Source: a bacterium (GTDB lineage Bacteria > Patescibacteriota > Patescibacteriia > S139-126). From it: a DNA stretch of 64,000 nt. The stretch covers positions 24,691 through 88,690 of the forward strand of contig DAOUWZ010000002.1 of assembly GCA_030666865.1 (NCBI GenBank), read 5' to 3'. The position numbers were made by a program, and so were the translations under genes. The notes under the pieces are model-generated. The model was not told the DNA's origin. It worked only from the letters and a program-made list of their open reading frames with translations, and made no database searches. Below, piece after piece: positions 14,597 through 39,291 of the stretch (position 1 is its first letter; the number at the start of each line of letters is the position of its first letter).

Positions 14597-17392
14597 TTAA
14601 AAAACATAGTTACGGATTACTCCCTTTCGGATGTAAGTCGCGGCATAGGCACAACCACCGTCACCCCAAACTTTGGCAACAACGACAATGTTTCGCTCTT
14701 CCCACTGCAAATCATTCATATAGAACGACTGGACTTCAGATTCGTCCAAAGTGAGTGGGAAACGACTATCAACTGACAATGGAAAGACCGCTATACGACC
14801 TCCCGTCGCATATTCAGACTCAAGATTGATTTCGTACTTTTTGCACGAAACCTTCCTTAGTTGATTCGGCTGACCATCATCATAGTCAACCTGCCACCAC
14901 AATTTCGGCGCATACACCGGCGGTGAGATAATAACGGGCTGTAATTCAAAGTACAATTCGTTTACTACGCCCTCAATCGCTTTAAACGCCATTACCACAG
15001 TTTGGTAACCATCAGCTTGCAGAATCACCAAATGCCAACCCGGCTCTACAGCATAATTATAAATCGGCGTAGTGCCAATTTCCATAGAATCCAAGGTTAC
15101 CGTGGCGGTGACATTGCTAGTAATATTAACCAGTGTTTCTCCGGGGCTAGATGGATCCAAATCCTTATGAACAACCATGGAATCACCAGGCACAACTGTA
15201 AAAGCAGAATGCCAGGGTTGATAACCATCAAGTTCATACGAATAAGTATGAAACCCAGGCTGCAGTTTTATCCAACCAGTATTAGTTTGATAATTCTGCA
15301 AATACCCATCAAGATACACTTTGGCGCCTGCCGGAGCTGAACTAAACCGTACCCAGGCATCCAAGGTGGGATTTATATACCCGCCTTTGACATAAACCTT
15401 GATAGTTTTATGGGTAATTCCGCCAGGCCCAGATACTTCCAGCGTATAATAATACACTCCAGAAGCTTCCTTAACTTCAGTAACAGACCCGTTAGTCGGC
15501 ACAATACCGATTCCGGAAATAACCGCACTGGTAGCGCCAGAGGAAGTCCACTGCAAAGTAAAAGGTTCGCCAGCCATAGCGGTATCAGGTCCGGTAAATA
15601 AATTAATAACAACCGGATCCGGACTGTCAATAAAATTGAAAGTCAAAGTCTTAAGTTCACCCGAATTGAGCTTCACCCAATTTTTTTGATCAACATAGCC
15701 CGTACGAGTAACCTTAATTTCTAAAACTTGATTGGCGATAATAGTAAACACGTTATCCGTATCACCGACATAGGATCCGTTGATGTAAATCTTAGATCCG
15801 CCGCCCTTATTATCCTTAATCGCCAGCTGCGCTTCATTGTCTTGTAGTTTCTCTTTAACAAAAACTGTAAGACTTTTTGAAGCTTGACCGCCGGGTCCAG
15901 ATACTTCCAATGTGTAAGCGTATTCGCCTGATGCGTATTTAACATCTGAAACGCTACCGGAAGTCGTAACTGGTCCAATACCATTAATAATAGCATTATC
16001 AGCGCCAGAAGATGCCCAGCTTAAGGTAAATACTTCATCGGCTTCTACAGTATCCGGTCCAGTGAATGATCGAATAACAACCGGATCCGGACTGTCAATA
16101 AAATTGAAAGTCAAAGTCTTTAATTCCCCGGCAGACAGTTTTACCCAATCCTTTTGATCGGCGTAACCATCACGGGTAACTTTAATTTCGTGGATCTGAT
16201 CGGCTATAACGGTAAAATAACTATTCGTATTACCAACGTAATTACCGTCAATCTCAACCCGAGATCCGCCATCTTTATTATCCATAACCGCGACTTCTGC
16301 AGTATTATCCGGTAATTTCACCAGATAAACTGTGGACAGAATAGCGGTTTGTCCGGCAGTAACGCTAAACGGAATATTTTTAGATTTATAACCGGCTTTA
16401 TGTACTGCAAGAGAATAATCACCGGCTGATAAACCATTAAAATACACCACTTCGCCATCAAGCATAACATTCACAGAATCAGCTCCAGGGTAACTATACA
16501 AAACTACCTGGTCATATCCGCCATCTACTGCCATCATAACCGAACCGGTAGATGGTGATTCTTCTGGAAAATCAAAATGAAATTTAAGTACATTTCCAGA
16601 CTGAGCAGTTTTGGTGTCCTGTATCGTCAAACCATTTTTAGAAACAGTAGCTGTGACAGTAACACCAACCTCAACTGAATCATGTGCAGACAAATCAATC
16701 GGCGTTTTACCCTGATAAGAGTAATAACCGTTAGTGACAATATAATTAACTGGATCATTATTCGTAGTAACAACCAATGGCACTTTTTCTTTTCCTGAAT
16801 CAATTTCTTTAGGAACCATTCTGACATCAAGAGCGGTCCGTCGCCCATTTATCACCTGAACTTGCCCATAAAAAGGACGATAATCCTGATGAGATAGACG
16901 CACAAAATAATCACCACCTGGTAAATAGAATTTATCAGACGAATATCCGATCGCGACTGTATCCTTGGAATCAGCATTAATAACATAGATATCGGCACCC
17001 TGCATATTCATAGTGTTAACCACAAATATGCCTTGAGTCGGATTATCAGTCAGCTTGGTTAAGGAATTTACTACGAACAACTTCTGCTTATCCGGTTCAA
17101 TCATAAACTTTTCATCCTGAGTATCATACCCAGGGGCATAAGCTTCCATATAAAATTCCTTATTAGCGGGTAATTCCCAGACAGTTGATTCACCAGAATT
17201 TAATAATTTTTCCTGCCCAGTATGAAGACGAATGGTCACTGGAATGGAAAATTTGTTTACTGCTTCCAGCTTTCCGGTTTCTCCATCTGTTACCTGCGGT
17301 CCAGCAATGTTATTCTCCTCATGAAAGGTTGTGCAAGAGGAAAACATAATCACCGCCAGCAAAACCGTTAAAATCACACAAATATTTTTCAT
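14597..17392 (-). CDS. Large secreted PEGA-domain protein of 931 aa, a probable lipoprotein or cell-surface protein with an internal ~160-aa tandem duplication.
   Basis: A signal peptide ending in a cysteine (MKNICVILTVLLAVIMFSSC). PEGA-like motifs include SSAPAGAKVYLDGY, VTRDGYADQ and VTRTGYVDQ. Two near-identical blocks (VIRSFTGPDTVEADEVFTLSWASSGA... / VINLFTGPDTAMAGEPFTLQWTSSGA...) are also repeated at the nucleotide level (15600-16080 and 16075-16560). Confidence 0.6.
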   Translation of the reverse strand: MKNICVILTVLLAVIMFSSCTTFHEENNIAGPQVTDGETGKLEAVNKFSIPVTIRLHTGQEKLLNSGESTVWELPANKEFYMEAYAPGYDTQDEKFMIEPDKQKLFVVNSLTKLTDNPTQGIFVVNTMNMQGADIYVINADSKDTVAIGYSSDKFYLPGGDYFVRLSHQDYRPFYGQVQVINGRRTALDVRMVPKEIDSGKEKVPLVVTTNNDPVNYIVTNGYYSYQGKTPIDLSAHDSVEVGVTVTATVSKNGLTIQDTKTAQSGNVLKFHFDFPEESPSTGSVMMAVDGGYDQVVLYSYPGADSVNVMLDGEVVYFNGLSAGDYSLAVHKAGYKSKNIPFSVTAGQTAILSTVYLVKLPDNTAEVAVMDNKDGGSRVEIDGNYVGNTNSYFTVIADQIHEIKVTRDGYADQKDWVKLSAGELKTLTFNFIDSPDPVVIRSFTGPDTVEADEVFTLSWASSGADNAIINGIGPVTTSGSVSDVKYASGEYAYTLEVSGPGGQASKSLTVFVKEKLQDNEAQLAIKDNKGGGSKIYINGSYVGDTDNVFTIIANQVLEIKVTRTGYVDQKNWVKLNSGELKTLTFNFIDSPDPVVINLFTGPDTAMAGEPFTLQWTSSGATSAVISGIGIVPTNGSVTEVKEASGVYYYTLEVSGPGGITHKTIKVYVKGGYINPTLDAWVRFSSAPAGAKVYLDGYLQNYQTNTGWIKLQPGFHTYSYELDGYQPWHSAFTVVPGDSMVVHKDLDPSSPGETLVNITSNVTATVTLDSMEIGTTPIYNYAVEPGWHLVILQADGYQTVVMAFKAIEGVVNELYFELQPVIISPPVYAPKLWWQVDYDDGQPNQLRKVSCKKYEINLESEYATGGRIAVFPLSVDSRFPLTLDESEVQSFYMNDLQWEERNIVVVAKVWGDGGCAYAATYIRKGVIRNYVF

Positions 17393-30005: not shown

Positions 30006-31715
30006 TTACCAGCTTCCTCCTCCGCCACCACCAAAACCACCGCCAGAAAATCCTGAGCCGCCAGAACCAGTGCCACCCCGAGCTGCTGCAGAAAAACCAC
30101 TATTTACATTAGTAGTAAAACCAGATAAATCATCAATCAAGCTCAAAGCTATCAAATTACCTGTCATACCTCCTTCATACCATGTAGGCGGCTCAATATA
30201 CATATCAGCAAACTGCTTGGCCCATTTTTTTTCAACTCCCATCGCTATTGCAAACGGTAAAAATTTCATAAACTGTTTAGGATCCTTTTCCGGAGCATTA
30301 TGAAATTCTAACCGATCTTTGTCAGTCACAGCCAAAAATTCTTTAAAACCTAGAATACTTTCTTTTGTTTCAGCTCCATGTTTAGTCTTTTTGCTCATTA
30401 TCCAGCCAAAACCCATAATGATAACTCCTGATACAATCAAAGCTACAATGCCCGCGCCAAACCAATCTCCTAAATATATTGCCAAGAAAATTATACCGAT
30501 TCCGAGTCCCATGTACAAACCTCTGACTTTCTCAGGATTTTTCTTATAATACCCTTTTAGAACCATTTCTTCATTTATATCTCTTTTGAATAACTTTATT
30601 TTCTTGCTCATACTAACATCTTTTTTTATTTTTGACATCTTTTTTTTACTTCCAGAAATTGCATTATTACCAAAAATAATTTCACCAATATCTTTTTCAA
30701 TTTTACTATTTATTTCACCAATATCTTTTAATAATATCAACTCATAATCTTTGCCAGAAAACACGCTTTGCTTCTCTATTTTTTTAATTTTTAGAAAACC
30801 TTGCTGAGCCAAATAAATAATGCCAGCAGTAATATCTCGATTATCAACTTTTTCATCAATCAAAGATCCGAGGAGTGTCGGTTTTAAATCTTGCGGTGGA
30901 TGATATTCAGGAATGATAGTTCCTTTCCCTTTAGGATCTCGTCCTTTATAAAACCATAATAAAAACATAAATACAAAAACCAATACCGGCAATGCAATTA
31001 TAAAATTATTTTTCAGCCATCTCATAAAAAAACTAAACTCACCTGGCTGATCTAAATAGCCCTTAGGCATACCAAAAGCAATTGTCATTCCTTCCTTAGG
31101 ATATAATTCTGATTTATTCTGAAAAATAGTAGTAAATCCATTTTCAATAAGACATTCTTCGTCAGAGCCATATTCCCCTTGATAGCATGACACTTGAATA
31201 TTTTCTTTGGAACCAGAATAAAAAATCTCTGCCCTAACATTTTTGATTGGTACTGGCCATTGATTTCCTGTCAAATTCCAATAAAATTCATCAAATTCAT
31301 CAAAATAATTAATCGCTCCTGTAACCTTATAAATAATTTCATATTTATTAAGACCGTCAACAAAAACTTCCGCTTGACCAATTTTTATTTCTTTATTTTT
31401 CCCTTTATTACTAACTTCATACATTTCTGGTTGTTCATTTCTCATAACATCTGAAACACTAATATCAATTTTCCTTTCCCCGAATTTGCCTTGATAGCTA
31501 ATCGGAATGTTCCGATAAATGCCATGCTTTTGCAAATTACCGAAATCATAAAAAATTGTTTCTTGAATAGTAATTGTGGCATCAGCATCAATCTTAATAT
31601 TTACTTGAAAATGAGTAATTTCTTCTGCACTTACCCAAAAACCAAAAAGTAGACTTATTAATCCAATTAAAAGACCTATTGCGACATGCCAAATTTTTAT
31701 ACTACCGCTTTTCAC
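30006..31715 (-). CDS. DUF2207-family membrane protein with a C-terminal Gly-rich tail.
   Basis: A signal/TM segment, then a large extracytoplasmic domain, then TM helices, then GGTGSGGSGFSGGGFGGGGGGSW. This architecture is typical of DUF2207. Confidence 0.5.
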   Translation of the reverse strand: MKSGSIKIWHVAIGLLIGLISLLFGFWVSAEEITHFQVNIKIDADATITIQETIFYDFGNLQKHGIYRNIPISYQGKFGERKIDISVSDVMRNEQPEMYEVSNKGKNKEIKIGQAEVFVDGLNKYEIIYKVTGAINYFDEFDEFYWNLTGNQWPVPIKNVRAEIFYSGSKENIQVSCYQGEYGSDEECLIENGFTTIFQNKSELYPKEGMTIAFGMPKGYLDQPGEFSFFMRWLKNNFIIALPVLVFVFMFLLWFYKGRDPKGKGTIIPEYHPPQDLKPTLLGSLIDEKVDNRDITAGIIYLAQQGFLKIKKIEKQSVFSGKDYELILLKDIGEINSKIEKDIGEIIFGNNAISGSKKKMSKIKKDVSMSKKIKLFKRDINEEMVLKGYYKKNPEKVRGLYMGLGIGIIFLAIYLGDWFGAGIVALIVSGVIIMGFGWIMSKKTKHGAETKESILGFKEFLAVTDKDRLEFHNAPEKDPKQFMKFLPFAIAMGVEKKWAKQFADMYIEPPTWYEGGMTGNLIALSLIDDLSGFTTNVNSGFSAAARGGTGSGGSGFSGGGFGGGGGGSW

Positions 31716-31731
31716 TTATTAAAATTAATAT

Positions 31732-32064
31732 TTAAATTTCTATTTCTTCAGAATTATGGTCTTCGGAATTTTCTTCATCTAAGCCATTATCTAATTCTAT
31801 TTCGTCATTAGCATGATTATTGATTTTTTTTTCTAGTTCTGGCTGAACTTTATTTGATTCTGACCTGATAACTTCACATTTTTCTTTTTTAACTGTACTT
31901 ATGCCCAGTATTTGATATAAACCACAAAAATTTATAAAACTAGTTATAGCTAAAATTATTGCCAAAATCCACCAATATGGCGAATGAAAAAATGCTAAAA
32001 CAACGAATAATAAAGCAAAAAATAATCTAATAAATCTATCAATTTTACCTATATTTTTTCTCAT
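31732..32064 (-). CDS. DUF2892 (YgaP-like) small membrane protein with an acidic C-terminal tail.
   Basis: IDRFIRL...AITSF.NFCGLYQILGIS resembles the DUF2892 consensus. Confidence 0.45.
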   Translation of the reverse strand: MRKNIGKIDRFIRLFFALLFVVLAFFHSPYWWILAIILAITSFINFCGLYQILGISTVKKEKCEVIRSESNKVQPELEKKINNHANDEIELDNGLDEENSEDHNSEEIEI

Positions 32065-32290
32065 AAAATTTTATTAATTTATTAAATATATATAAATTTT
32101 CCTATAAATATATTATACAGAATTAAAGGCCATTTTAAAAGAATTTTATATATCCTCATTAAAATAGATAATATTAATTTATCATCTTGAACATTTAACA
32201 TTTGAATTTTGGGCTTTTTGGTATTTGGATTTTCCTGCCTGTCTAGACGAATCGGCAAGACTCACAATAGTAACTAATTATACGACAAGT

Positions 32291-33883
32291 CTAATACGGT
32301 AATGTAAATTTAAATGTGGAGCCCTTGCCATAACCATCGCTTTCCGCCCAAATATTACCGCTATGTCCTTCAATAATTTTCTTAGCAATATAAAGCCCGA
32401 GCCCTACTCCGCTAGTATCTACTTTATTAATATCTTTGCCACGACGGAACTTATTAAATAATTCATCTAATTCTTCATAAGAAATTCCCCTACCAGTATC
32501 AGTAACACTAACTAAAACATATTTTTCCATCTTTTTAACCTCAATAACAATTTTCCCGCCATTAGGAGTATATTTTATTGCATTATCTATCAAATTCAAA
32601 ATAACATCAGTTACTTTATCACTATCACACGATGTGCTTATATCAGACTTTGTTTTAAATTCAATCTTAATATTTTTTTCCGTTGCTTCAATTTCTAAAG
32701 ATTTAATAATATCAGAAATTATATTATTAATATTCTGCTTGGTCTTAAGTATTTTTAAACGACCAGACTCAATTCTAGAAATATTCAAAAAGATATTTAT
32801 CAAACGAATTAATCTCTCCGAATTTCTCAACAAAACTCCGACAATATCATTTTGCTCTTTAGTCATCTTGCCATAATCACCATCTGACAACATAGACAAA
32901 TATCCTTTAATAGCCGATAATGGCGTTCTTAATTGGTGAGAAGTGATGGATAAAAATTCAGTTTTAGCTTCATCAAGTTTAGTCAATCTGGCATTAGCTT
33001 CTTGCAAAGCCGAAGTAATCTTTTTTAATTTTTTAACCTGTTTAATCTCTCTTAAAATACTTTTTACTAATAAAATACTAATAATAACTACAGCAACAAA
33101 CACTATTACATTAATTACTAACTCGGTATAAGTACTTGAAGTTAATACTTTTACTAACAAAAAAAATGATAAGAGCACGCTTAATAATTCAGATGCAATA
33201 ACTTTTATATTCATTAAATTATAACGTATAAGAGCGTAAACAAAGCTTAATATCAATGGAATATGAAACAAATGACCAAAACGAACAAAATTAGTTCTCT
33301 TAAAAAAAACAACTGATAAATAATTAAAAAATACCATTAAACTAAATGTCAATATCAAACCCGCTGCAATATATTTCCATTGTTTTTTCTCAAGACCTTC
33401 CGCTCTATAAAACCTCTTAAATAAATAAAAGAAAGAAAAAATTGTAAAAAAAATAATATATAGACCAAATACTGGCATTAATAAACCTTTTACCGGCTCT
33501 ATATTTTGATTGTTATAAACAACCGATTCAAATATTAGAGGTGTTAGAGATAACCCCATTAAAACAATGGTAATAAATATAGAGGAATAAAAAACCCATT
33601 TATTCCAAGTAATTTTTTTATCTGGGAATGTGTAAATAAATAAAAATAGTAAATATGTTTGCGGAATAGCAAATAACATAACTATTCTAATCCAAAATAA
33701 AGTAAATTCTGGATCACTATGCACAGAAAAAAAGTTATTTACGCCCCAAAATGTCAACGATAATACTAATAAAACAAAAAATATTTGATTAACATTCTTT
33801 TTCCCATAATAATACACAAAAATTACTAACGTTATATTAGATAATGCTGTGATTACTAAAGTTAAAAAATCAAAATTAAACAT
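32291..33883 (-). CDS. Sensor histidine kinase with a multi-TM (7TM-like) N-terminal domain. It is an orphan, with no response regulator adjacent.
   Basis: H-box SHQLRTPLSAIKGYLSML and a HATPase_c domain (DTGRGISYEELDELFNKFRRG...GVGLGLYIAKKIIEGHSGNIWAES). Confidence 0.8.
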   Translation of the reverse strand: MFNFDFLTLVITALSNITLVIFVYYYGKKNVNQIFFVLLVLSLTFWGVNNFFSVHSDPEFTLFWIRIVMLFAIPQTYLLFLFIYTFPDKKITWNKWVFYSSIFITIVLMGLSLTPLIFESVVYNNQNIEPVKGLLMPVFGLYIIFFTIFSFFYLFKRFYRAEGLEKKQWKYIAAGLILTFSLMVFFNYLSVVFFKRTNFVRFGHLFHIPLILSFVYALIRYNLMNIKVIASELLSVLLSFFLLVKVLTSSTYTELVINVIVFVAVVIISILLVKSILREIKQVKKLKKITSALQEANARLTKLDEAKTEFLSITSHQLRTPLSAIKGYLSMLSDGDYGKMTKEQNDIVGVLLRNSERLIRLINIFLNISRIESGRLKILKTKQNINNIISDIIKSLEIEATEKNIKIEFKTKSDISTSCDSDKVTDVILNLIDNAIKYTPNGGKIVIEVKKMEKYVLVSVTDTGRGISYEELDELFNKFRRGKDINKVDTSGVGLGLYIAKKIIEGHSGNIWAESDGYGKGSTFKFTLPY

Positions 33884-33910
33884 ATTGTTATAAAATAACT
33901 ATAACTTTTT

Positions 33911-35470
33911 TTAGTCAATAATCCAAGATTGCTTACCAGAACGAGAGAAATAATCAGAACTGTTATAATCCCAAAACTCAATTTTTGGAATTACTTTCTC
34001 GCCCATAGATTCAAACAGCTTATTAAATTCAAAATTTGTCTCTCTTAAATTTTTAATAATTATTTCTTGAATAGTATTTTTGATTTCATTATCAATTTTA
34101 ATATTTTCCATCAATTCAATATCTATTTTTAAATAAGAATTGTTGTTATTATCATACAATTTTTTCATAACAAATCTTCCAGAAATATATTTCTTAATAT
34201 AATCATCTTCTAAACCTTTTTTAATATTATCAGGATAGATTAATAATCCATATAAAATAACAGCTGACTTTTTCCCCTTCAATTCTAAAAATGGTAAGTT
34301 CCAAATAGACATTCTATTTTTAGAATTTTTATTTAGTATATTAACACCATTTTTATCTAATTTTTTTTTCATCCGCTCAAAAGAGACTACTCTGCCCTCA
34401 TCTTTAATATTATATCTTAATAAAGGAATACTGCCATCAGAAGAAAAAACTAATTCATTTTTAACTTGTTCAAAATATTTTGAAAGTGGATTATATTGGA
34501 ATAAACCAGGAATATTTACCGCCTGAAAAAATAATCTATTCTTTATTTCCTCATTAATTGTAGCTAATTGTCTTAAATAAATTGTTACTGGCGTTTCGTG
34601 TGCTAATATATTTGCATCAGCAGATCCATACAAACTAAAAGAATCATATATTTTATTACTACAACATGCTTTCTCCATTATTTCTAATCTCCAATTTTCA
34701 CTAAAACCCTCACCAGCAAATAAAAATTTAATATTAAACTTACTCCATTCAATATTATTTTTTAAACCCACATCAATAATATCTTTTAAAAAGGGGGGGT
34801 AACCAGCTAAAACTACTTGATCATATTTACCACCTAATTTACTTATCAAACTACTTGTTTCTTCAATACTGATTCCTGGGCTAATAACTGTTAAAGGATA
34901 ATTTTTTTGTGATAAACGCATACCACAATTTTGAGTAAGTACGCCAGCAACATACATGCCCATTGAAAAACATACTATCAATAAAGTACTTTTATTATTA
35001 ATCTGAAAAAATTCTTTAAATAATATTTCATGTTGCAAAGAAGCTTCAAATTCTTGCCAACTGGACCTAAACCAAAAAAATGGATCCCCGCTAGATCCTG
35101 AGCTAACAGAAATTATAGTCTGTTTATTAAAAGATCCTTGCCAACAGAGATCCTGTAATTGATATTTATTCAAGTAATTATTCTTATCAATCAAAGGCAC
35201 TTTTTGAAAATCATTCCAAGTAGCAATATCTTTATGATTGATATTATTTTTCTTCAAAAACTTTTTATAGGCTGGCACTTCTTCGGCAGCCCGATGAAAC
35301 AATTTAAGAAATTTTGTTTTTGCTTTGGCGACTAACTCTTCACTAGAAATATTCTCCAAATCTTTTTTAAAACTATCTGCATTATAACTATCAAAATCAA
35401 TAGTATAGTTTTGTGAATAATTCTTATCACTTAAAAAAAATTCTATGCCTTTAAAATTGTTCTTTTTCAT
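33911..35470 (-). CDS. Adenylate-forming enzyme, phenylacetate-CoA ligase / coenzyme F390 synthetase (PaaK)-like, ANL superfamily.
   Basis: SSGSSGDPFFW resembles the ANL/PaaK A3 motif (SSGTTGKP), and the length of ~520 aa fits. A 4-nt overlap with the upstream gene points to translational coupling. Confidence 0.5.
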   Translation of the reverse strand: MKKNNFKGIEFFLSDKNYSQNYTIDFDSYNADSFKKDLENISSEELVAKAKTKFLKLFHRAAEEVPAYKKFLKKNNINHKDIATWNDFQKVPLIDKNNYLNKYQLQDLCWQGSFNKQTIISVSSGSSGDPFFWFRSSWQEFEASLQHEILFKEFFQINNKSTLLIVCFSMGMYVAGVLTQNCGMRLSQKNYPLTVISPGISIEETSSLISKLGGKYDQVVLAGYPPFLKDIIDVGLKNNIEWSKFNIKFLFAGEGFSENWRLEIMEKACCSNKIYDSFSLYGSADANILAHETPVTIYLRQLATINEEIKNRLFFQAVNIPGLFQYNPLSKYFEQVKNELVFSSDGSIPLLRYNIKDEGRVVSFERMKKKLDKNGVNILNKNSKNRMSIWNLPFLELKGKKSAVILYGLLIYPDNIKKGLEDDYIKKYISGRFVMKKLYDNNNNSYLKIDIELMENIKIDNEIKNTIQEIIIKNLRETNFEFNKLFESMGEKVIPKIEFWDYNSSDYFSRSGKQSWIID

Positions 35471-36525
35471 TTATTTATAATAATATCTTCTGCTATTTTT
35501 TTTGCAATAAAATTAGGAGATAATTTTTCTAACTTTGAACGCTCTGCCACTTTTTTTAATATTACCTTAATATTTTCTATTCTTGCCAAAACTCTTTCTT
35601 TTTGATAACCACCTCCTTCAAATTGATCAACTATATTTATCAACCCTCCAGCATTAACAATAAAATCAGGCGCAAAAAATATTCCTTTGTTATATAACTC
35701 TTCTCCAATCATTTCTGATGACAATTGATTATTCGCCCCACCAACTATTATTCTTGTTTTCAACTCTTTAATACTGGTGTGATTAAATTCATCTCCTAAA
35801 GCACAAGGAGAATAGATATCAACTGGATATGTATGAATTTTTTTGTAATCAACAAATTCTATATTCGGATATATTCCTTTTATTCTATTTTCTACATCTT
35901 TATTAATATCCGCAACAATAACATTAGCATTATTCTCAATCAACAATCTTAACAACTCTCCGCCTAATTTGCCAACTCCCTTGATAGCCACTTTAATTCC
36001 ATCTAATTTTTCTACGCCCTTTAATTCTTTAACAACACCCTGTATTCCATAAAAAACTCCTAATGCAGCCATGTCGGATGTAGAAAATCTTTTTCCTCCA
36101 TCAGTAGAATGCCCTAAGATATATTTTGATTGTTGTGACATTATTTTAGTATCAGATTCATTGATACCAATATCTGGCCCGGTAGTAAATTCTCCCTGTA
36201 ATTTATCTACTTCTTGAACGTAAGCTTTTAATAACTCGCTATTCTTATTTTTTTGTTCTGAAATAATTACAGCTTTTCCTCCACCAAATTTAACTCCGGC
36301 TAAAGCGCACTTATATGTCATTGCTTTTGATAAATTCAACACATCTTTTACAGCTTCTTCATCCGTTTTATAATGCCATATTCTAGTACCACCAGTTGCT
36401 GGACCTAAATTTGTATTATGTATAGCAATATATCCTCTTAATCCTACTGTTTTATCTACAAAAAAAACCACTTTCTCATGATTATCATATTCTGAAAATT
36501 GTTTTATTTCTTCTATATTTAACAT
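35467..36525 (-). CDS. Glu/Leu/Phe/Val dehydrogenase family, NAD(P)-dependent amino-acid dehydrogenase (Leu/Phe-DH size class).
   Basis: AMTYKCALAGVKFGGGKAVI carries the catalytic-Lys glycine-rich motif, and GVGKLGGEL is the Rossmann motif. Confidence 0.7.
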   Translation of the reverse strand: MLNIEEIKQFSEYDNHEKVVFFVDKTVGLRGYIAIHNTNLGPATGGTRIWHYKTDEEAVKDVLNLSKAMTYKCALAGVKFGGGKAVIISEQKNKNSELLKAYVQEVDKLQGEFTTGPDIGINESDTKIMSQQSKYILGHSTDGGKRFSTSDMAALGVFYGIQGVVKELKGVEKLDGIKVAIKGVGKLGGELLRLLIENNANVIVADINKDVENRIKGIYPNIEFVDYKKIHTYPVDIYSPCALGDEFNHTSIKELKTRIIVGGANNQLSSEMIGEELYNKGIFFAPDFIVNAGGLINIVDQFEGGGYQKERVLARIENIKVILKKVAERSKLEKLSPNFIAKKIAEDIIINK

Positions 36526-37631
36526 TTCTTATTTATTATTTTATCCATACGAAATTCATACCTTCCCGAAGGCACTTCATAATTATTTGCAATTTGTCTG
36601 GCAAAATAACATAAAACCGCCCCCCTTAAAAATGAACACTCTGCCAATTGAGGTATGCCAGCAATTTTATTACCAATTAACGAGAATGATTCCTGTAGTC
36701 TTGTTACTAAATATTTAGCTCCAATAAAATCTTTTGCCAACTCTATCTTTTCTTTAATATCCCTAGGCTTATTATTTATTTTAGCAATAATATTGTTCTG
36801 CAAATATCCATTCATTATTTTTAAATCTTCATCAATGTCATACCTTTCTATATCAATGATTAAATTTTCACCATTGCCAGTAACCATTAAAACTGGAATC
36901 TTATATTTTTTTGCCTTTTCTCTTATATCAATTTTTAATTTTAAGTTATCAGTCTCTTCAATTAAAAGATCCAGCTTCGGATCTAATAAAAATTTTTCTT
37001 CATCACCGCTTATCACTCCTTGATCAAAAATATCAATTTTCATATATGGATCAATCTCAAATACTTGCCTGGCAGTCAATATTGCTTTATTTAAACCCAA
37101 TTCTGAAAGACTTGAACGAAAACGATTTAAATTTGATGCTGATAAAATATCAAAATCGGCAAACTTCATACATTTTGACCCGCCTTCTAAAGCAATACAG
37201 ACTGCAGCCGGATTTCCTACATTCAAACCTGCGATTCCGATTTTAAAATCTTTAAATTTTTTTTGCTCTGCTTTGGTAATTAATTTATTATTTCTAGAAA
37301 TCCTTAAATCATAAAAATCATCCTCGTCAATAATATGTACTATACAATTTTTCCACGGATAATAAATCCATTTGCCATCATAAAATTTTGTGGCAACACT
37401 CTCTTCTTTTAATTTATTGTTTTTAAATAGCAAAGATGGGTCTTTTATTAATTGTAATTCATTTTCAATTTCTGAATACTCGTCAACTATTTCATTAACA
37501 GTCCCCTCTTTTATTAATTTTATAAAAAAATTTTTATCTTTATTGTCAGACAAATCAAATATTACAGGCTGAAAAATATTTCTACCATTTTTATCTATCT
37601 TGCAATTATTGACTAATTTTTCTATTTCCAT
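36519..37631 (-). CDS. E1-like ThiF/MoeB/HesA family adenylyltransferase with a ~125-aa N-terminal extension.
   Basis: IGIAGLNVGNPAAVCIALEGG...DFDILSASNLNRF matches the MoeB/ThiF motifs GLGGLGSPAA...DDDVVSLSNLQRQ. A 7-nt overlap with the downstream dehydrogenase gene. Confidence 0.65.
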   Translation of the reverse strand: MEIEKLVNNCKIDKNGRNIFQPVIFDLSDNKDKNFFIKLIKEGTVNEIVDEYSEIENELQLIKDPSLLFKNNKLKEESVATKFYDGKWIYYPWKNCIVHIIDEDDFYDLRISRNNKLITKAEQKKFKDFKIGIAGLNVGNPAAVCIALEGGSKCMKFADFDILSASNLNRFRSSLSELGLNKAILTARQVFEIDPYMKIDIFDQGVISGDEEKFLLDPKLDLLIEETDNLKLKIDIREKAKKYKIPVLMVTGNGENLIIDIERYDIDEDLKIMNGYLQNNIIAKINNKPRDIKEKIELAKDFIGAKYLVTRLQESFSLIGNKIAGIPQLAECSFLRGAVLCYFARQIANNYEVPSGRYEFRMDKIINKKC

Positions 37632-37641
37632 ATTTCCTTTA

Positions 37642-38664
37642 TCAATTTTCTAACAAATTATCATTCAACAAAATTCGTGGTGTATGTTTCATTTTCCCGC
37701 GAATATTTCCTATACATAACAAAAATTGAGGCAACTCACTTGTATTCAATATTTCTTGTAAATTTTTTCGAAAATCTCCAATTTCAATACTGGCAACATA
37801 AATTGAAAAATCTAAATTATCTTTAATTATATTCAGCATTAAACGTTCTGACGAACGACCAGCTTCTAACCAGCTATATTTATCATCATTATTTGTAGTT
37901 AAAACATATATGCCAGGAGCAGATCTGATACTAAAATAATTTAGTTTAGATAAAATTCGACCAAAATTAAAATATGAAATTAAAACAGGGACAATAAAAG
38001 ATAACAAACCTGGCATTTTTAAAGAATAACCGGGCAAACCATCTTTTTTATTGGAAAAATTATTGTGCATCCAATTAGACATTTCTAGACGAAACTCCTT
38101 ATCACTATGAGCCATTTTCATCCCCTGAGAAGTTAAATCTGCAATTTTTTGAATATTATTTTTATTATTTACACATTTTAAATTTACGATTTCAGATGAT
38201 AATAATTTTTCATATTTTATTATAGTTTCTAAATTATCAACATAATTGGAAAAAATACCACGAGTATTTACTCTATTCGATATAGCTTCTAATAAATCTT
38301 TATATTTTTCATTTACTTCATCAGATTCGCTAAAAAAAACTTCTGCAACAAGATTTTCTTCACTATCAATTTTATACTTAATATCGCTATAAATTCCAAA
38401 ATATTTAGCAGCAATTATTAGATTTTCCAAAAAACATCCAATGCTAATATATAAATCTCTGCCTGTTGGATCAGCCTGTGGTAAAATTTTTGCAGGATTA
38501 ATATATACTTTGCAAGTATTATTTTTAATTTTATACAACCATGGCTGACTATTATGTGTTGACGGAGCTAAAATCGCATAATTTAAGATAAATCTTATTT
38601 TATCTTTTAAATCGCCTTCAGCTGGAAAATCATTTTTATTTAATTCCCAATTATTTAAGTTCAT
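37642..38664 (-). CDS. Nitroreductase-family flavoprotein, two-domain ~340-aa type.
   Basis: AILAPSTHNSQPW is the nitroreductase FMN-site motif. The length implies a tandem nitroreductase fold, as in SagB/Acg-type proteins. Confidence 0.65.
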   Translation of the reverse strand: MNLNNWELNKNDFPAEGDLKDKIRFILNYAILAPSTHNSQPWLYKIKNNTCKVYINPAKILPQADPTGRDLYISIGCFLENLIIAAKYFGIYSDIKYKIDSEENLVAEVFFSESDEVNEKYKDLLEAISNRVNTRGIFSNYVDNLETIIKYEKLLSSEIVNLKCVNNKNNIQKIADLTSQGMKMAHSDKEFRLEMSNWMHNNFSNKKDGLPGYSLKMPGLLSFIVPVLISYFNFGRILSKLNYFSIRSAPGIYVLTTNNDDKYSWLEAGRSSERLMLNIIKDNLDFSIYVASIEIGDFRKNLQEILNTSELPQFLLCIGNIRGKMKHTPRILLNDNLLEN

Positions 38665-38754
38665 TGTTTAGATTTATAACTTTATTATAACAAAAAAATA
38701 CTTTTTTCATAAATTAATCATTATTAATATATCTGCAAGTAAATTCCAATAAAC

Positions 38755-39291
38755 CTAAACCTTCCCTACAATTCTCAAATAAGTAATGCCAACACCATTA
38801 GCTAACAGCTCCTCTGCCGATATCCTTGGCAGAGATTTTTTATACCTCCACAAAATTTCTTGCTGTAATGCATTAATATCTTTGATGTGTGAAAATGAAT
38901 ATTGCCAAACATCAGCGTCAAGTTTTTCATAAGCAACACCCTCTTCAACATCTATACATTCGGCCATATAACAATTTTTAAAATCCAATAATGGTAATTG
39001 TTCATTTTTTTGATCAATAAAAAAACCAGGCTTAATTATTCTTGGCAAAGCATATAATTTACCTAGGCAATGTCCACTATATTCTAAATTAAAATGAGTA
39101 AATAAACCAATTGGCTCGGGAAAATTTTGATAATCTTTCTGATGTATTCTGATAATTCCATCTATTTTGTATGTCAGGCACGCATCAAAATTTGTAAGCA
39201 TTTTCTCCTGACCATCATTGTCTATGAACAAACACTTATCATTCAAACTTCTTTTTGTAAAAAATGGAATCATTATAGTTACCAAGATCAA
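38755..39291 (-). CDS. Hypothetical protein of 178 aa, the first gene of the accessory operon.
   Basis: An ORF only 3 nt downstream of gap. No family was recognised. Confidence 0.4.
   Translation of the reverse strand: MILVTIMIPFFTKRSLNDKCLFIDNDGQEKMLTNFDACLTYKIDGIIRIHQKDYQNFPEPIGLFTHFNLEYSGHCLGKLYALPRIIKPGFFIDQKNEQLPLLDFKNCYMAECIDVEEGVAYEKLDADVWQYSFSHIKDINALQQEILWRYKKSLPRISAEELLANGVGITYLRIVGKV

Follow-up and report, generated by a model that had tools for sequence, protein, structure and literature searches.

What do the minus-strand genes around positions 33,911–39,291 of a 64,000-nucleotide stretch of patescibacterial DNA (contig DAOUWZ010000002.1; the whole stretch is called the window here) make, and which of them belong together? 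The original prediction, made from the sequence alone, described five of these genes as a biosynthetic or peptide-modification operon and listed a 178-aa protein, a nitroreductase-fold flavoprotein (NTR), an E1-like enzyme, an amino-acid dehydrogenase (DH) and a PaaK-like ligase. Comparison with related loci shows that the conserved unit is instead NTR-E1-(DH)-ligase-HK, where HK is a seven-transmembrane (7TM) sensor histidine kinase; it spans positions 32291–38664 of the minus strand and is found Patescibacteria-wide. On balance, we lean towards reading this cassette as a coenzyme A (CoA)-independent route to an oxazolone-type compound from an N-acyl, probably aromatic, amino acid, coupled to two-component signalling.

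Conservation and extent of the cassette

Relatives of the E1-like gene were collected by scanning one genome per species, which gave at least 151 species-level genomes, from which 80 loci were kept. The record labels of these loci cover many Patescibacteria lineages; the few that read 'uncultured Gammaproteobacteria' or 'Nitrospirae' were taken as mislabelled. Families were defined over the loci by tblastn and clustering of open reading frames (ORFs), and co-occurrence was counted in the 43 loci whose E1 gene has flanks of 5 kb or more on either side. Four families keep together in the loci: the E1, the flavoprotein, the PaaK-like ligase and the 7TM kinase. Every one of the 43 well-flanked loci has the ligase; the flavoprotein occurs in 41 (2 of them as fusions with the E1), the kinase in 41, and all three in 40. 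Eighteen of the 43 carry the dehydrogenase and 6 a class I/II aminotransferase (PF00155), so that one or the other is found in 24. No YcaO, protease or transporter family recurred in the 80 loci upon ORF clustering. The co-occurrence of the genes among related loci supports the view of a biosynthetic accessory operon, and it holds for four of the five genes first proposed and for the kinase as well; the 178-aa gene, which was part of the proposed five-gene unit, is found in 0 of the other 80 loci, and the conserved kinase gene had been left out.

The cassette members share the strand of the E1 gene, except for some aminotransferases and receivers, and the enzyme genes are arranged in about 20 different orders. 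Across these orders the flavoprotein gene adjoins the E1 gene, the dehydrogenase or aminotransferase gene is nearly always immediately 5′ of the ligase gene, and the kinase gene lies downstream of the E1 gene (60 of 60 loci), in 50 of the 60 immediately behind a core gene, whatever the enzyme order. In three loci (L054, L068 and L070) the E1 and the flavoprotein are fused into a single protein. The genomic settings differ as well: the cassette sits between gap and pgk, as described at the outset, in the lineage of the window (L001, L032, L044, L046 and L047) but elsewhere in other lineages, for example after grpE-dnaK-dnaJ. Because it is found in such different neighbourhoods, the cassette appears to move as a unit. 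Its G+C content in the window (25–29% across positions 32001–39000) is the lowest of the window, compared with 31–34% in the flanks, which would fit an accessory gene set or one acquired by transfer.

Within the window, all five minus-strand ORFs of the original prediction, with their overlaps, gaps and motifs, could be located (Table 1), and profile and structure matches (Pfam, NCBIfam and solved structures) agree with the families assigned to the flavoprotein, E1, dehydrogenase and ligase. The E1 and dehydrogenase genes overlap by 7 nt (ATGTTAA) and the dehydrogenase and ligase genes by 4 nt (ATGA); a 10-nt gap, with AGGA ahead of the ATG, separates the NTR gene from the E1 gene, and 27 nt lie between the ligase gene and the kinase gene, which is on the same strand. 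The same arrangement occurs on identical contigs from two public runs.

Table 1. Genes of the cassette and the two features 5′ of it, in window positions.
Feature	Position	Strand	Description
Flavoprotein (NTR) gene	37642–38664	minus	340 aa, contains APSTHNSQPW; two-lobed Acg-type nitroreductase fold
E1-like gene	36519–37631	minus	370 aa, ThiF-like, TrzS (Rv1355c) N-half type
Dehydrogenase (DH) gene	35467–36525	minus	352 aa, Leu/Phe/Trp family, optional module member
Ligase gene	33911–35470	minus	519 aa, contains SSGSSGDPFFW; PaaK-fold ANL enzyme
7TM histidine kinase (HK) gene	32291–33883	minus	530 aa; HisKA_7TM, HisKA, HATPase_c (Pfam)
Spacer 5′ of cassette	38665–38754	minus	90 nt; probable cassette promoter region
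178-aa gene	38755–39291	minus	TTG start; outside cassette

One further family, f8, adjoins the cassette in 13 loci (among them L012, L013, L018, L021, L038, L041, L043, L069 and L077), often in the series dnaK-dnaJ-[cassette]-f8-aspS-like. Its members show HIGH- and KMSKS-like motifs by eye and resemble tryptophanyl- or tyrosyl-tRNA synthetases. Their proximity is probably conserved synteny, though notable given the aromatic substrate proposed below.

The cassette proteins and their characterised relatives

In 2025, Rv1355c ('MoeY') was shown to be TrzS, the oxazolone synthetase of Mycobacterium tuberculosis and its relatives, in which a ThiF-like ATP-dependent cyclase and a flavin oxidase act on N-acyl aromatic amino acids; in this N-acyl tryptazolone pathway, TrzA (Rv1356c) makes the N-acyl tryptophan for TrzS from acyl-CoA (PMC12856293). 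The same two-step chemistry is carried out by OxzB with OxzA in Pseudoalteromonas rubra (bioRxiv 10.1101/2020.06.11.147165) and by TyzB and TyzC, two separate proteins that work with TyzA (TyzACB = Rv2336-2338c) and yield tyrazolone and phenazolone (PMC10404671). The substrates of the characterised ThiF/FDO oxazolone enzymes are N-acylated Tyr, Phe or Trp (PMC12856293, PMC10404671, bioRxiv 10.1101/2020.06.11.147165), and a 2025 review names OxzB as the only known ThiF-like enzyme with a small molecule as its substrate (PMC12596934).

The window E1 scores 281.9 bits against the NCBIfam Rv1355c family in a single stretch (query residues 16–367 on model positions 7–340) that includes its N-terminal extension, whereas the ThiF, MoeB and TcdA models match weakly (27–48 bits, cut-offs 152–647). 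This extension, put at ~125 aa in the original prediction, is real and measures about 110 aa. The adenylation motifs NLNRFR and EExDN (D228) are invariant among 19 homologues, and the ATP/Mg motif, the equivalent of TrzS Asp217, is intact, as oxazolone synthetase cyclases require. Neither zinc-binding CxxC pairs nor thiol motifs were found in these homologues, whose one conserved cysteine is C145, and no small beta-grasp ORF that could be a ThiS/MoaD-like partner is conserved beside the cassettes. An AlphaFold2 (AF2) model of the E1 (predicted local distance difference test score, pLDDT, 80.8) has its best solved matches in AclA (9egb, the closest), ThiF and MoeB, over the core only, with PaaA and MccB also among the matches. 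The fusion protein of L068 aligns with the Rv1355c family from end to end (450.5 bits, residues 13–726 on model positions 25–712). Since such fusions from the candidate phyla radiation (CPR) span the whole family model, the window pair of E1 and NTR appears to be a split relative of oxazolone synthetase. By sequence, the E1 is predicted to be an ATP-dependent adenylating cyclase of the TrzS N-half type, whose N-terminal extension (about 110 aa) is specific to the family.

TrzA/TrzS and the cassette thus have in common a ThiF-like cyclase that bears this N-terminal extension, Rv1355c being the best-scoring family for the window E1, together with a flavin oxidase of the nitroreductase superfamily, and an aromatic amino-acid substrate is suggested for both. 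They differ in that TrzS is fused while the window pair is split, that TrzA has no counterpart in the cassette, that the window oxidase is of the Acg/Rv3131 type and the window scores fall below the equivalog cut-off, and that the cassette adds a PaaK-like ligase, a dehydrogenase or aminotransferase and a 7TM kinase. OxzAB and TyzACB likewise use ThiF cyclisation with ATP followed by FDO desaturation, encoded by adjacent or fused genes, with TyzB and TyzC separate; however, their E1s fall in another subcluster than TrzS, they always occur with an acyl-CoA-using N-acyl amino acid synthase, they have no dedicated kinase, and they come from Proteobacteria and Actinomycetota.

The flavoprotein lies above the cut-off of NCBIfam NF047509, the Acg family of flavin mononucleotide-binding oxidoreductases (206.9 bits, cut-off 199), and matches the C-terminal half of the Rv1355c family with 59.2 bits. 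Its sole solved relative is MsAcg of Mycobacterium smegmatis (2YMV, E value 1.4e-9). Other cassettes, such as that of L047, carry a TrzS- or PRK14851-like oxidase (161–201 bits). All characterised oxazolone oxidases belong to the FDO-A branch. We propose that the NTR is the C-alpha/C-beta desaturase of a cyclised intermediate. The cassette flavoprotein of L067 (L067:11143-13044) is longer, with 633 aa, and has an alpha/beta-hydrolase-like C-terminal extension with a GSSFGG motif, which hints at an extra tailoring or hydrolysis step.

The dehydrogenase carries the Pfam domains PF02812 (ELFV_dehydrog_N, 85 bits) and PF00208 (ELFV_dehydrog, 65 bits), and its best NCBIfam match is the tryptophan dehydrogenase ScyB (301.7 bits, below the cut-off of 600). 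Compared with solved leucine and tryptophan dehydrogenases (LeuDH and TrpDH), it shows about 45–50% similarity (E values 1e-75 to 1e-78), and its catalytic residues K72, K84 and D118 are invariant among 32 cassette sequences. In the substrate pocket, G116 (32/32) and L295 (26/32) are shared with 5B37, a solved TrpDH, and are replaced by Ala and Val in four solved LeuDHs; we take these to be the positions of G124 and L307 of Bacillus sphaericus phenylalanine dehydrogenase, which separate that enzyme from LeuDH. The DH is therefore best described as a putative NAD(P)-dependent enzyme with an aromatic-type pocket, a description that embraces Phe, Tyr and Trp alike, and such a pocket fits the known oxazolones, all of which derive from Tyr, Phe or Trp.

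The ligase had no Pfam match, and its NCBIfam matches, to F390 synthetase and PaaK, were weak (32–40 bits; TIGR02155 for PaaK, 32.3 bits vs a cut-off of 646). No paa genes lie near the window cassette or recur in the 80 loci. The profile of the ligase family matches the PaaK-type structures 4r1l, 2y4o and 2y27 (E values 1e-11 to 7e-8), and the best Foldseek matches of its AF2 model (pLDDT 88.9) are PaaK1, BT_0428, 2-hydroxyisobutyryl-CoA ligase (HCL) and the amide ligase ClxA (9s3l), with an E value of 3e-20 and a template modelling (TM) score of up to 0.71, normalised by target length, for PaaK1 (2y27) and BT_0428 (4r1m). The P-loop SSGSSG and the C-terminal K513 are invariant in the family. 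In closoxazole biosynthesis, the PaaK-like enzyme ClxA uses the acyl adenylate directly, without CoA, to form amides and esters (PMC9400959, PMC12519233). It shares the PaaK fold with the cassette ligase (Foldseek E value 3e-14); however, the two are only 16% identical, and the substrates of ClxA are aminohydroxybenzoates of a benzoxazole pathway. No N-acyl amino acid synthase family of the OxzA/TyzA/TrzA type recurs in the 80 loci, and a phmmer search with a FeeM-type CPR sequence, a single query of limited sensitivity, found nothing in the window ORFs or the loci. Because this synthase is missing, the ligase is present in all loci and ClxA provides a precedent, the ligase may be what supplies the N-acyl amino acid without acyl-CoA.

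The kinase has about 7–9 hydrophobic segments in residues 3–281 and no sizeable extracytoplasmic domain, and its transmembrane region contains the conserved residues W46, N50, R66, G175 and P209. The lack of such a domain, together with these conserved polar and aromatic transmembrane residues, would suit a membrane-soluble ligand or a membrane-state signal. Kinases of 730–754 aa occur in four loci (L019:9842-12106, L067:13046-15262, L075 and L079) and are lengthened by an insert between HisKA and the 7TM region; in the L019 kinase, the sole long kinase scanned, this insert is a GAF domain (Pfam).

A candidate oxazolone pathway and its rivals

From gene content, homology, folds, motif conservation and co-occurrence we infer the following substrates, ligase step, product and kinase signal. 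The ligase would adenylate a carboxylic acid and hand the acyl group straight to an amino group, which would give an N-acyl amino acid without CoA. The dehydrogenase or aminotransferase would interconvert an aromatic amino acid and its 2-oxo acid and so provide the ligase with its acyl donor (an arylpyruvate, cf. ScyB in scytonemin synthesis) or with the amino acid; that this interconversion feeds the ligase is suggested because the aminotransferase replaces the dehydrogenase in some loci and because of their fixed place before the ligase gene. The E1 would then adenylate the N-acyl amino acid's carboxylate, the amide oxygen would close a 5(4H)-oxazolone ring, and the NTR would desaturate the C-alpha/C-beta bond to a conjugated 4-arylidene oxazolone. 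The kinase may sense this hydrophobic product in an autoinducer-type loop, or it may control product formation.

A stronger form of the proposal, which we consider possible and yet rather unlikely, is a self-contained module of signal synthase and receptor that makes an oxazolone-type or related dehydro-heterocycle from amino acids, with ATP only, acyl-CoA being dispensed with, and has the kinase as its receptor. In the autoinducer pairs CqsA/CqsS, LuxM/LuxN and AgrBD/AgrC, the synthase gene lies beside a gene for a polytopic histidine kinase without a large extracytoplasmic domain. The cassette enzyme genes are similarly co-oriented with an adjoining gene for a polytopic membrane histidine kinase; this is a likeness of layout only, as the cassette enzymes and kinase have no homology to those synthases or sensor domains.

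Several observations weigh against the oxazolone proposal. The N-acyltransferase that defines the known oxazolone operons is missing from the cassettes, and the ligase may yield a CoA thioester instead of the amide that the proposal requires. About 45% of the cassettes lack the dehydrogenase or aminotransferase, and no exporter is conserved with them. The L068 fusion, at full length, scores just below the Rv1355c equivalog cut-off of 476, and the window NTR is nearer to the Acg/Rv3131 (FDO-B) model than to the Rv1355c C-terminal half (206.9 vs 59.2 bits), so that its chemistry may differ from that of the TrzS oxidase; we know of no demonstrated reaction or function for the Acg-like branch. The known oxazolone oxidases consume O2, which is lacking from the habitats of many Patescibacteria. 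On the signalling side, tblastn found no response regulator in the window, and a receiver-only response regulator is nearby in just 12 of the 43 well-flanked loci. The link from E1 to kinase is near absolute (41/43), while that from kinase to E1 is not: in a homologue search that used full-length alignment, most returns being generic kinase cores, the cassette lies upstream in 4 of about 10 assessable full-length metagenome homologues (L083, L086, L092 and L101), and six homologues lack it there, two of which have >6.6 kb of upstream sequence.

In these six cassette-less loci the kinase gene is still preceded by same-strand enzyme genes. It lies 13 nt after the gene for a FeeM-type N-acyl amino acid synthase in L085:6035-8236, with a radical SAM/SPASM gene and two methyltransferase genes further 5′; a fatty-acyl-reductase-like gene and a hexapeptide transferase gene precede it in L089:5542-9599, a gene for a Shikimate_DH-like reductase in L090:473-3181, and likewise one or more genes for small-molecule or lipid enzymes in L091:215-4255. 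The synthase gene of L085 counts in favour of the oxazolone proposal. As seen in this handful of loci, Patescibacteria may have a general layout of a variable enzyme cassette plus a 7TM kinase.

The same enzymes could lead to another product. If the ligase linked one amino acid to another, or to a 2-oxo acid, the E1 could adenylate the C-terminal carboxylate, the free amine in place of the amide oxygen would close a 2,5-diketopiperazine or related ring, the flavoprotein would dehydrogenate this ring as AlbA does in albonoursin synthesis, and the kinase would sense the product. AlbA is itself a nitroreductase-family enzyme that desaturates diketopiperazines (cited in bioRxiv 10.1101/2020.06.11.147165), the window flavoprotein is not of the TrzS subtype, no acyl-CoA acyltransferase was found in the loci, and a dehydrogenase or aminotransferase beside the ligase suggests that both building blocks come from amino acids. 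We nevertheless regard a diketopiperazine as quite unlikely, given that the closest characterised relative of the E1 is the oxazolone-making TrzS, that no ThiF-like diketopiperazine maker was found in a review of these enzymes (PMC12596934), and that the flavoprotein matches the Acg family with no AlbA-type relationship seen. Alternatively, the cassette could scavenge aromatic acids and amino acids: the ligase would make an aryl-acyl-CoA, the dehydrogenase or aminotransferase would interconvert an arylpyruvate and an aromatic amino acid, the E1 and flavoprotein would serve some separate redox or stress function of the kind suggested for Acg proteins, and the kinase would sense a nutrient or the state of the membrane. 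True CoA ligases (PaaK1, BT_0428 and HCL) are indeed the best structural matches of the ligase, the adjacency of the dehydrogenase or aminotransferase to the ligase makes the tightest sub-module, and the flavoprotein exceeds the Acg-family cut-off. Against this, the 80 loci contain no recurrent oxidoreductase that would connect an aryl-acyl-CoA with an arylpyruvate and no further recurrent paa gene, the ligase reaches 32 bits where the PaaK model requires 646, and the dehydrogenase or aminotransferase is the part that about 45% of the cassettes dispense with; moreover, that the ligase accompanies every E1 (43/43) and the flavoprotein 41 of the 43 speaks for a single pathway. We hold scavenging to be improbable.

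Peptide chemistry, which the original prediction had raised by analogy with MccB and with the pathways of RiPPs (peptides that are synthesised ribosomally and modified post-translationally), fared worst. In such a system for making RiPPs or tagging proteins, the E1 extension would act as a peptide clamp, the E1 would activate the C-terminus of a peptide or protein, and the flavoprotein would oxidise the product. MccB, PaaA and GrcB, ThiF-like enzymes that bear a RiPP recognition element (RRE), are similar in size and layout (PMC12596934); MccB and PaaA share with the cassette E1 an adenylation core and an N-terminal extension of about 100 aa and are among its structural matches; and a 19-codon ORF lies upstream of the NTR gene. 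The scores to MccB and PaaA are weak, however (profile E values 1e-4 to 4e-3), the E1 extension gave no RRE-like match, aligns with the Rv1355c/TrzS family and is thus common to a small-molecule enzyme (PMC12856293), and clustering of the 12–70 aa ORFs in or beside 77 cassettes yielded no family beyond 3–5 closely related loci. Neither a YcaO-like family nor any other further family recurs in the loci. Because no precursor peptide, YcaO or RRE-like fold was found, the RiPP reading is unsupported, and we think it very improbable. A defence system was also considered and rejected, PADLOC having given marginal E1-E2 and kinase-core matches only.

To return to the oxazolone proposal, full-text searches of the literature found neither this gene combination nor oxazolone biosynthesis in Patescibacteria. 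The earlier statement that the genes match no known pathway is in this respect upheld for the full combination, but not for the core of E1 and NTR, which has relatives in OxzB, TyzB/TyzC and TrzS. Three features of the cassette appear novel: the position of the acyltransferase is taken by a PaaK-fold ligase, a dehydrogenase or aminotransferase adjoins that ligase, and the linkage to a sensor kinase is strict.

Flanking sequences and biological meaning

The 178-aa gene, which starts 6 codons later in public gene calls (172 aa), was examined as a fifth cassette member and rejected, with no tblastn or hidden Markov model match in the 80 loci. Its product seemed to be an ORFan in a word-indexed search; exhaustive HMMER searching gave about 240 cluster representatives, for the most part around 170 aa long. 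Some relatives are fused to transketolase pyrimidine-binding and C-terminal domains (P0264, P0266 and P0366); in P0381 the fusion partner is DUF952, and in P0309 a class-I glutamine amidotransferase. There is no Pfam model for the family. Judged by sequence, the gene, which lies directly after gap, encodes a member of a separate uncharacterised family.

In the 90 nt between the 178-aa gene and the NTR gene, an extended -10-like element, TGTTATAAT, can be read from the sequence at positions 38692–38684, 19 nt ahead of the NTR start. A consensus promoter scan returned 59 sites vs 59.7 expected, hence promoter and terminator scanning was uninformative in this AT-rich DNA. The 19-codon ORF, suggested in the original prediction as a possible precursor peptide, exists at positions 38710–38651, where it overlies the promoter-like site; it is not conserved across loci and was ruled out as a precursor. 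Rfam returned one tRNA only, far from the cassette.

At the other end, the four closest relatives of the window locus (L032, L044, L046 and L047) have a conserved and extremely acidic ORF of 38–45 codons (e.g., MSNEDFLTGDDMEEEGTDEEDMDEEDMDEDIDDEDEDM) just 3′ of the kinase gene, at about positions 15170, 13745, 13745 and 13760 of the respective loci. No such ORF was found at positions 32065–32290 of the window; the YgaP-like protein encoded next to this interval (31732–32064) has an acidic C-terminal tail. Also downstream of the kinase gene is the gene for a DUF2207 membrane protein (30006–31715, minus strand) with a glycine-rich end, ...GGTGSGGSGFSGGGFGGGGGGSW.

Bacterial N-acyl oxazolones were found between 2020 and 2025, and their role has been called unknown, with signalling suggested by the authors (PMC12856293, PMC10404671, bioRxiv 10.1101/2020.06.11.147165). 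In the cassette, the same core enzymes stand in a rule-like arrangement with a sensor kinase, which makes the signalling idea for oxazolones directly testable. The cassette marks an accessory function that is conserved in genomes which, at about 1 Mb, hold very little dispensable DNA. A PaaK-fold ligase that makes N-acyl amino acids without CoA would suit a minimal lipid and cofactor metabolism and might provide a biocatalyst. If the stronger form of the proposal, the module of signal synthase and receptor, is true, it would give bacterial oxazolones their first physiological role and receptor, and the cassette would be the first small-molecule system for cell–cell or host sensing described in the episymbiotic, ultra-small Patescibacteria.

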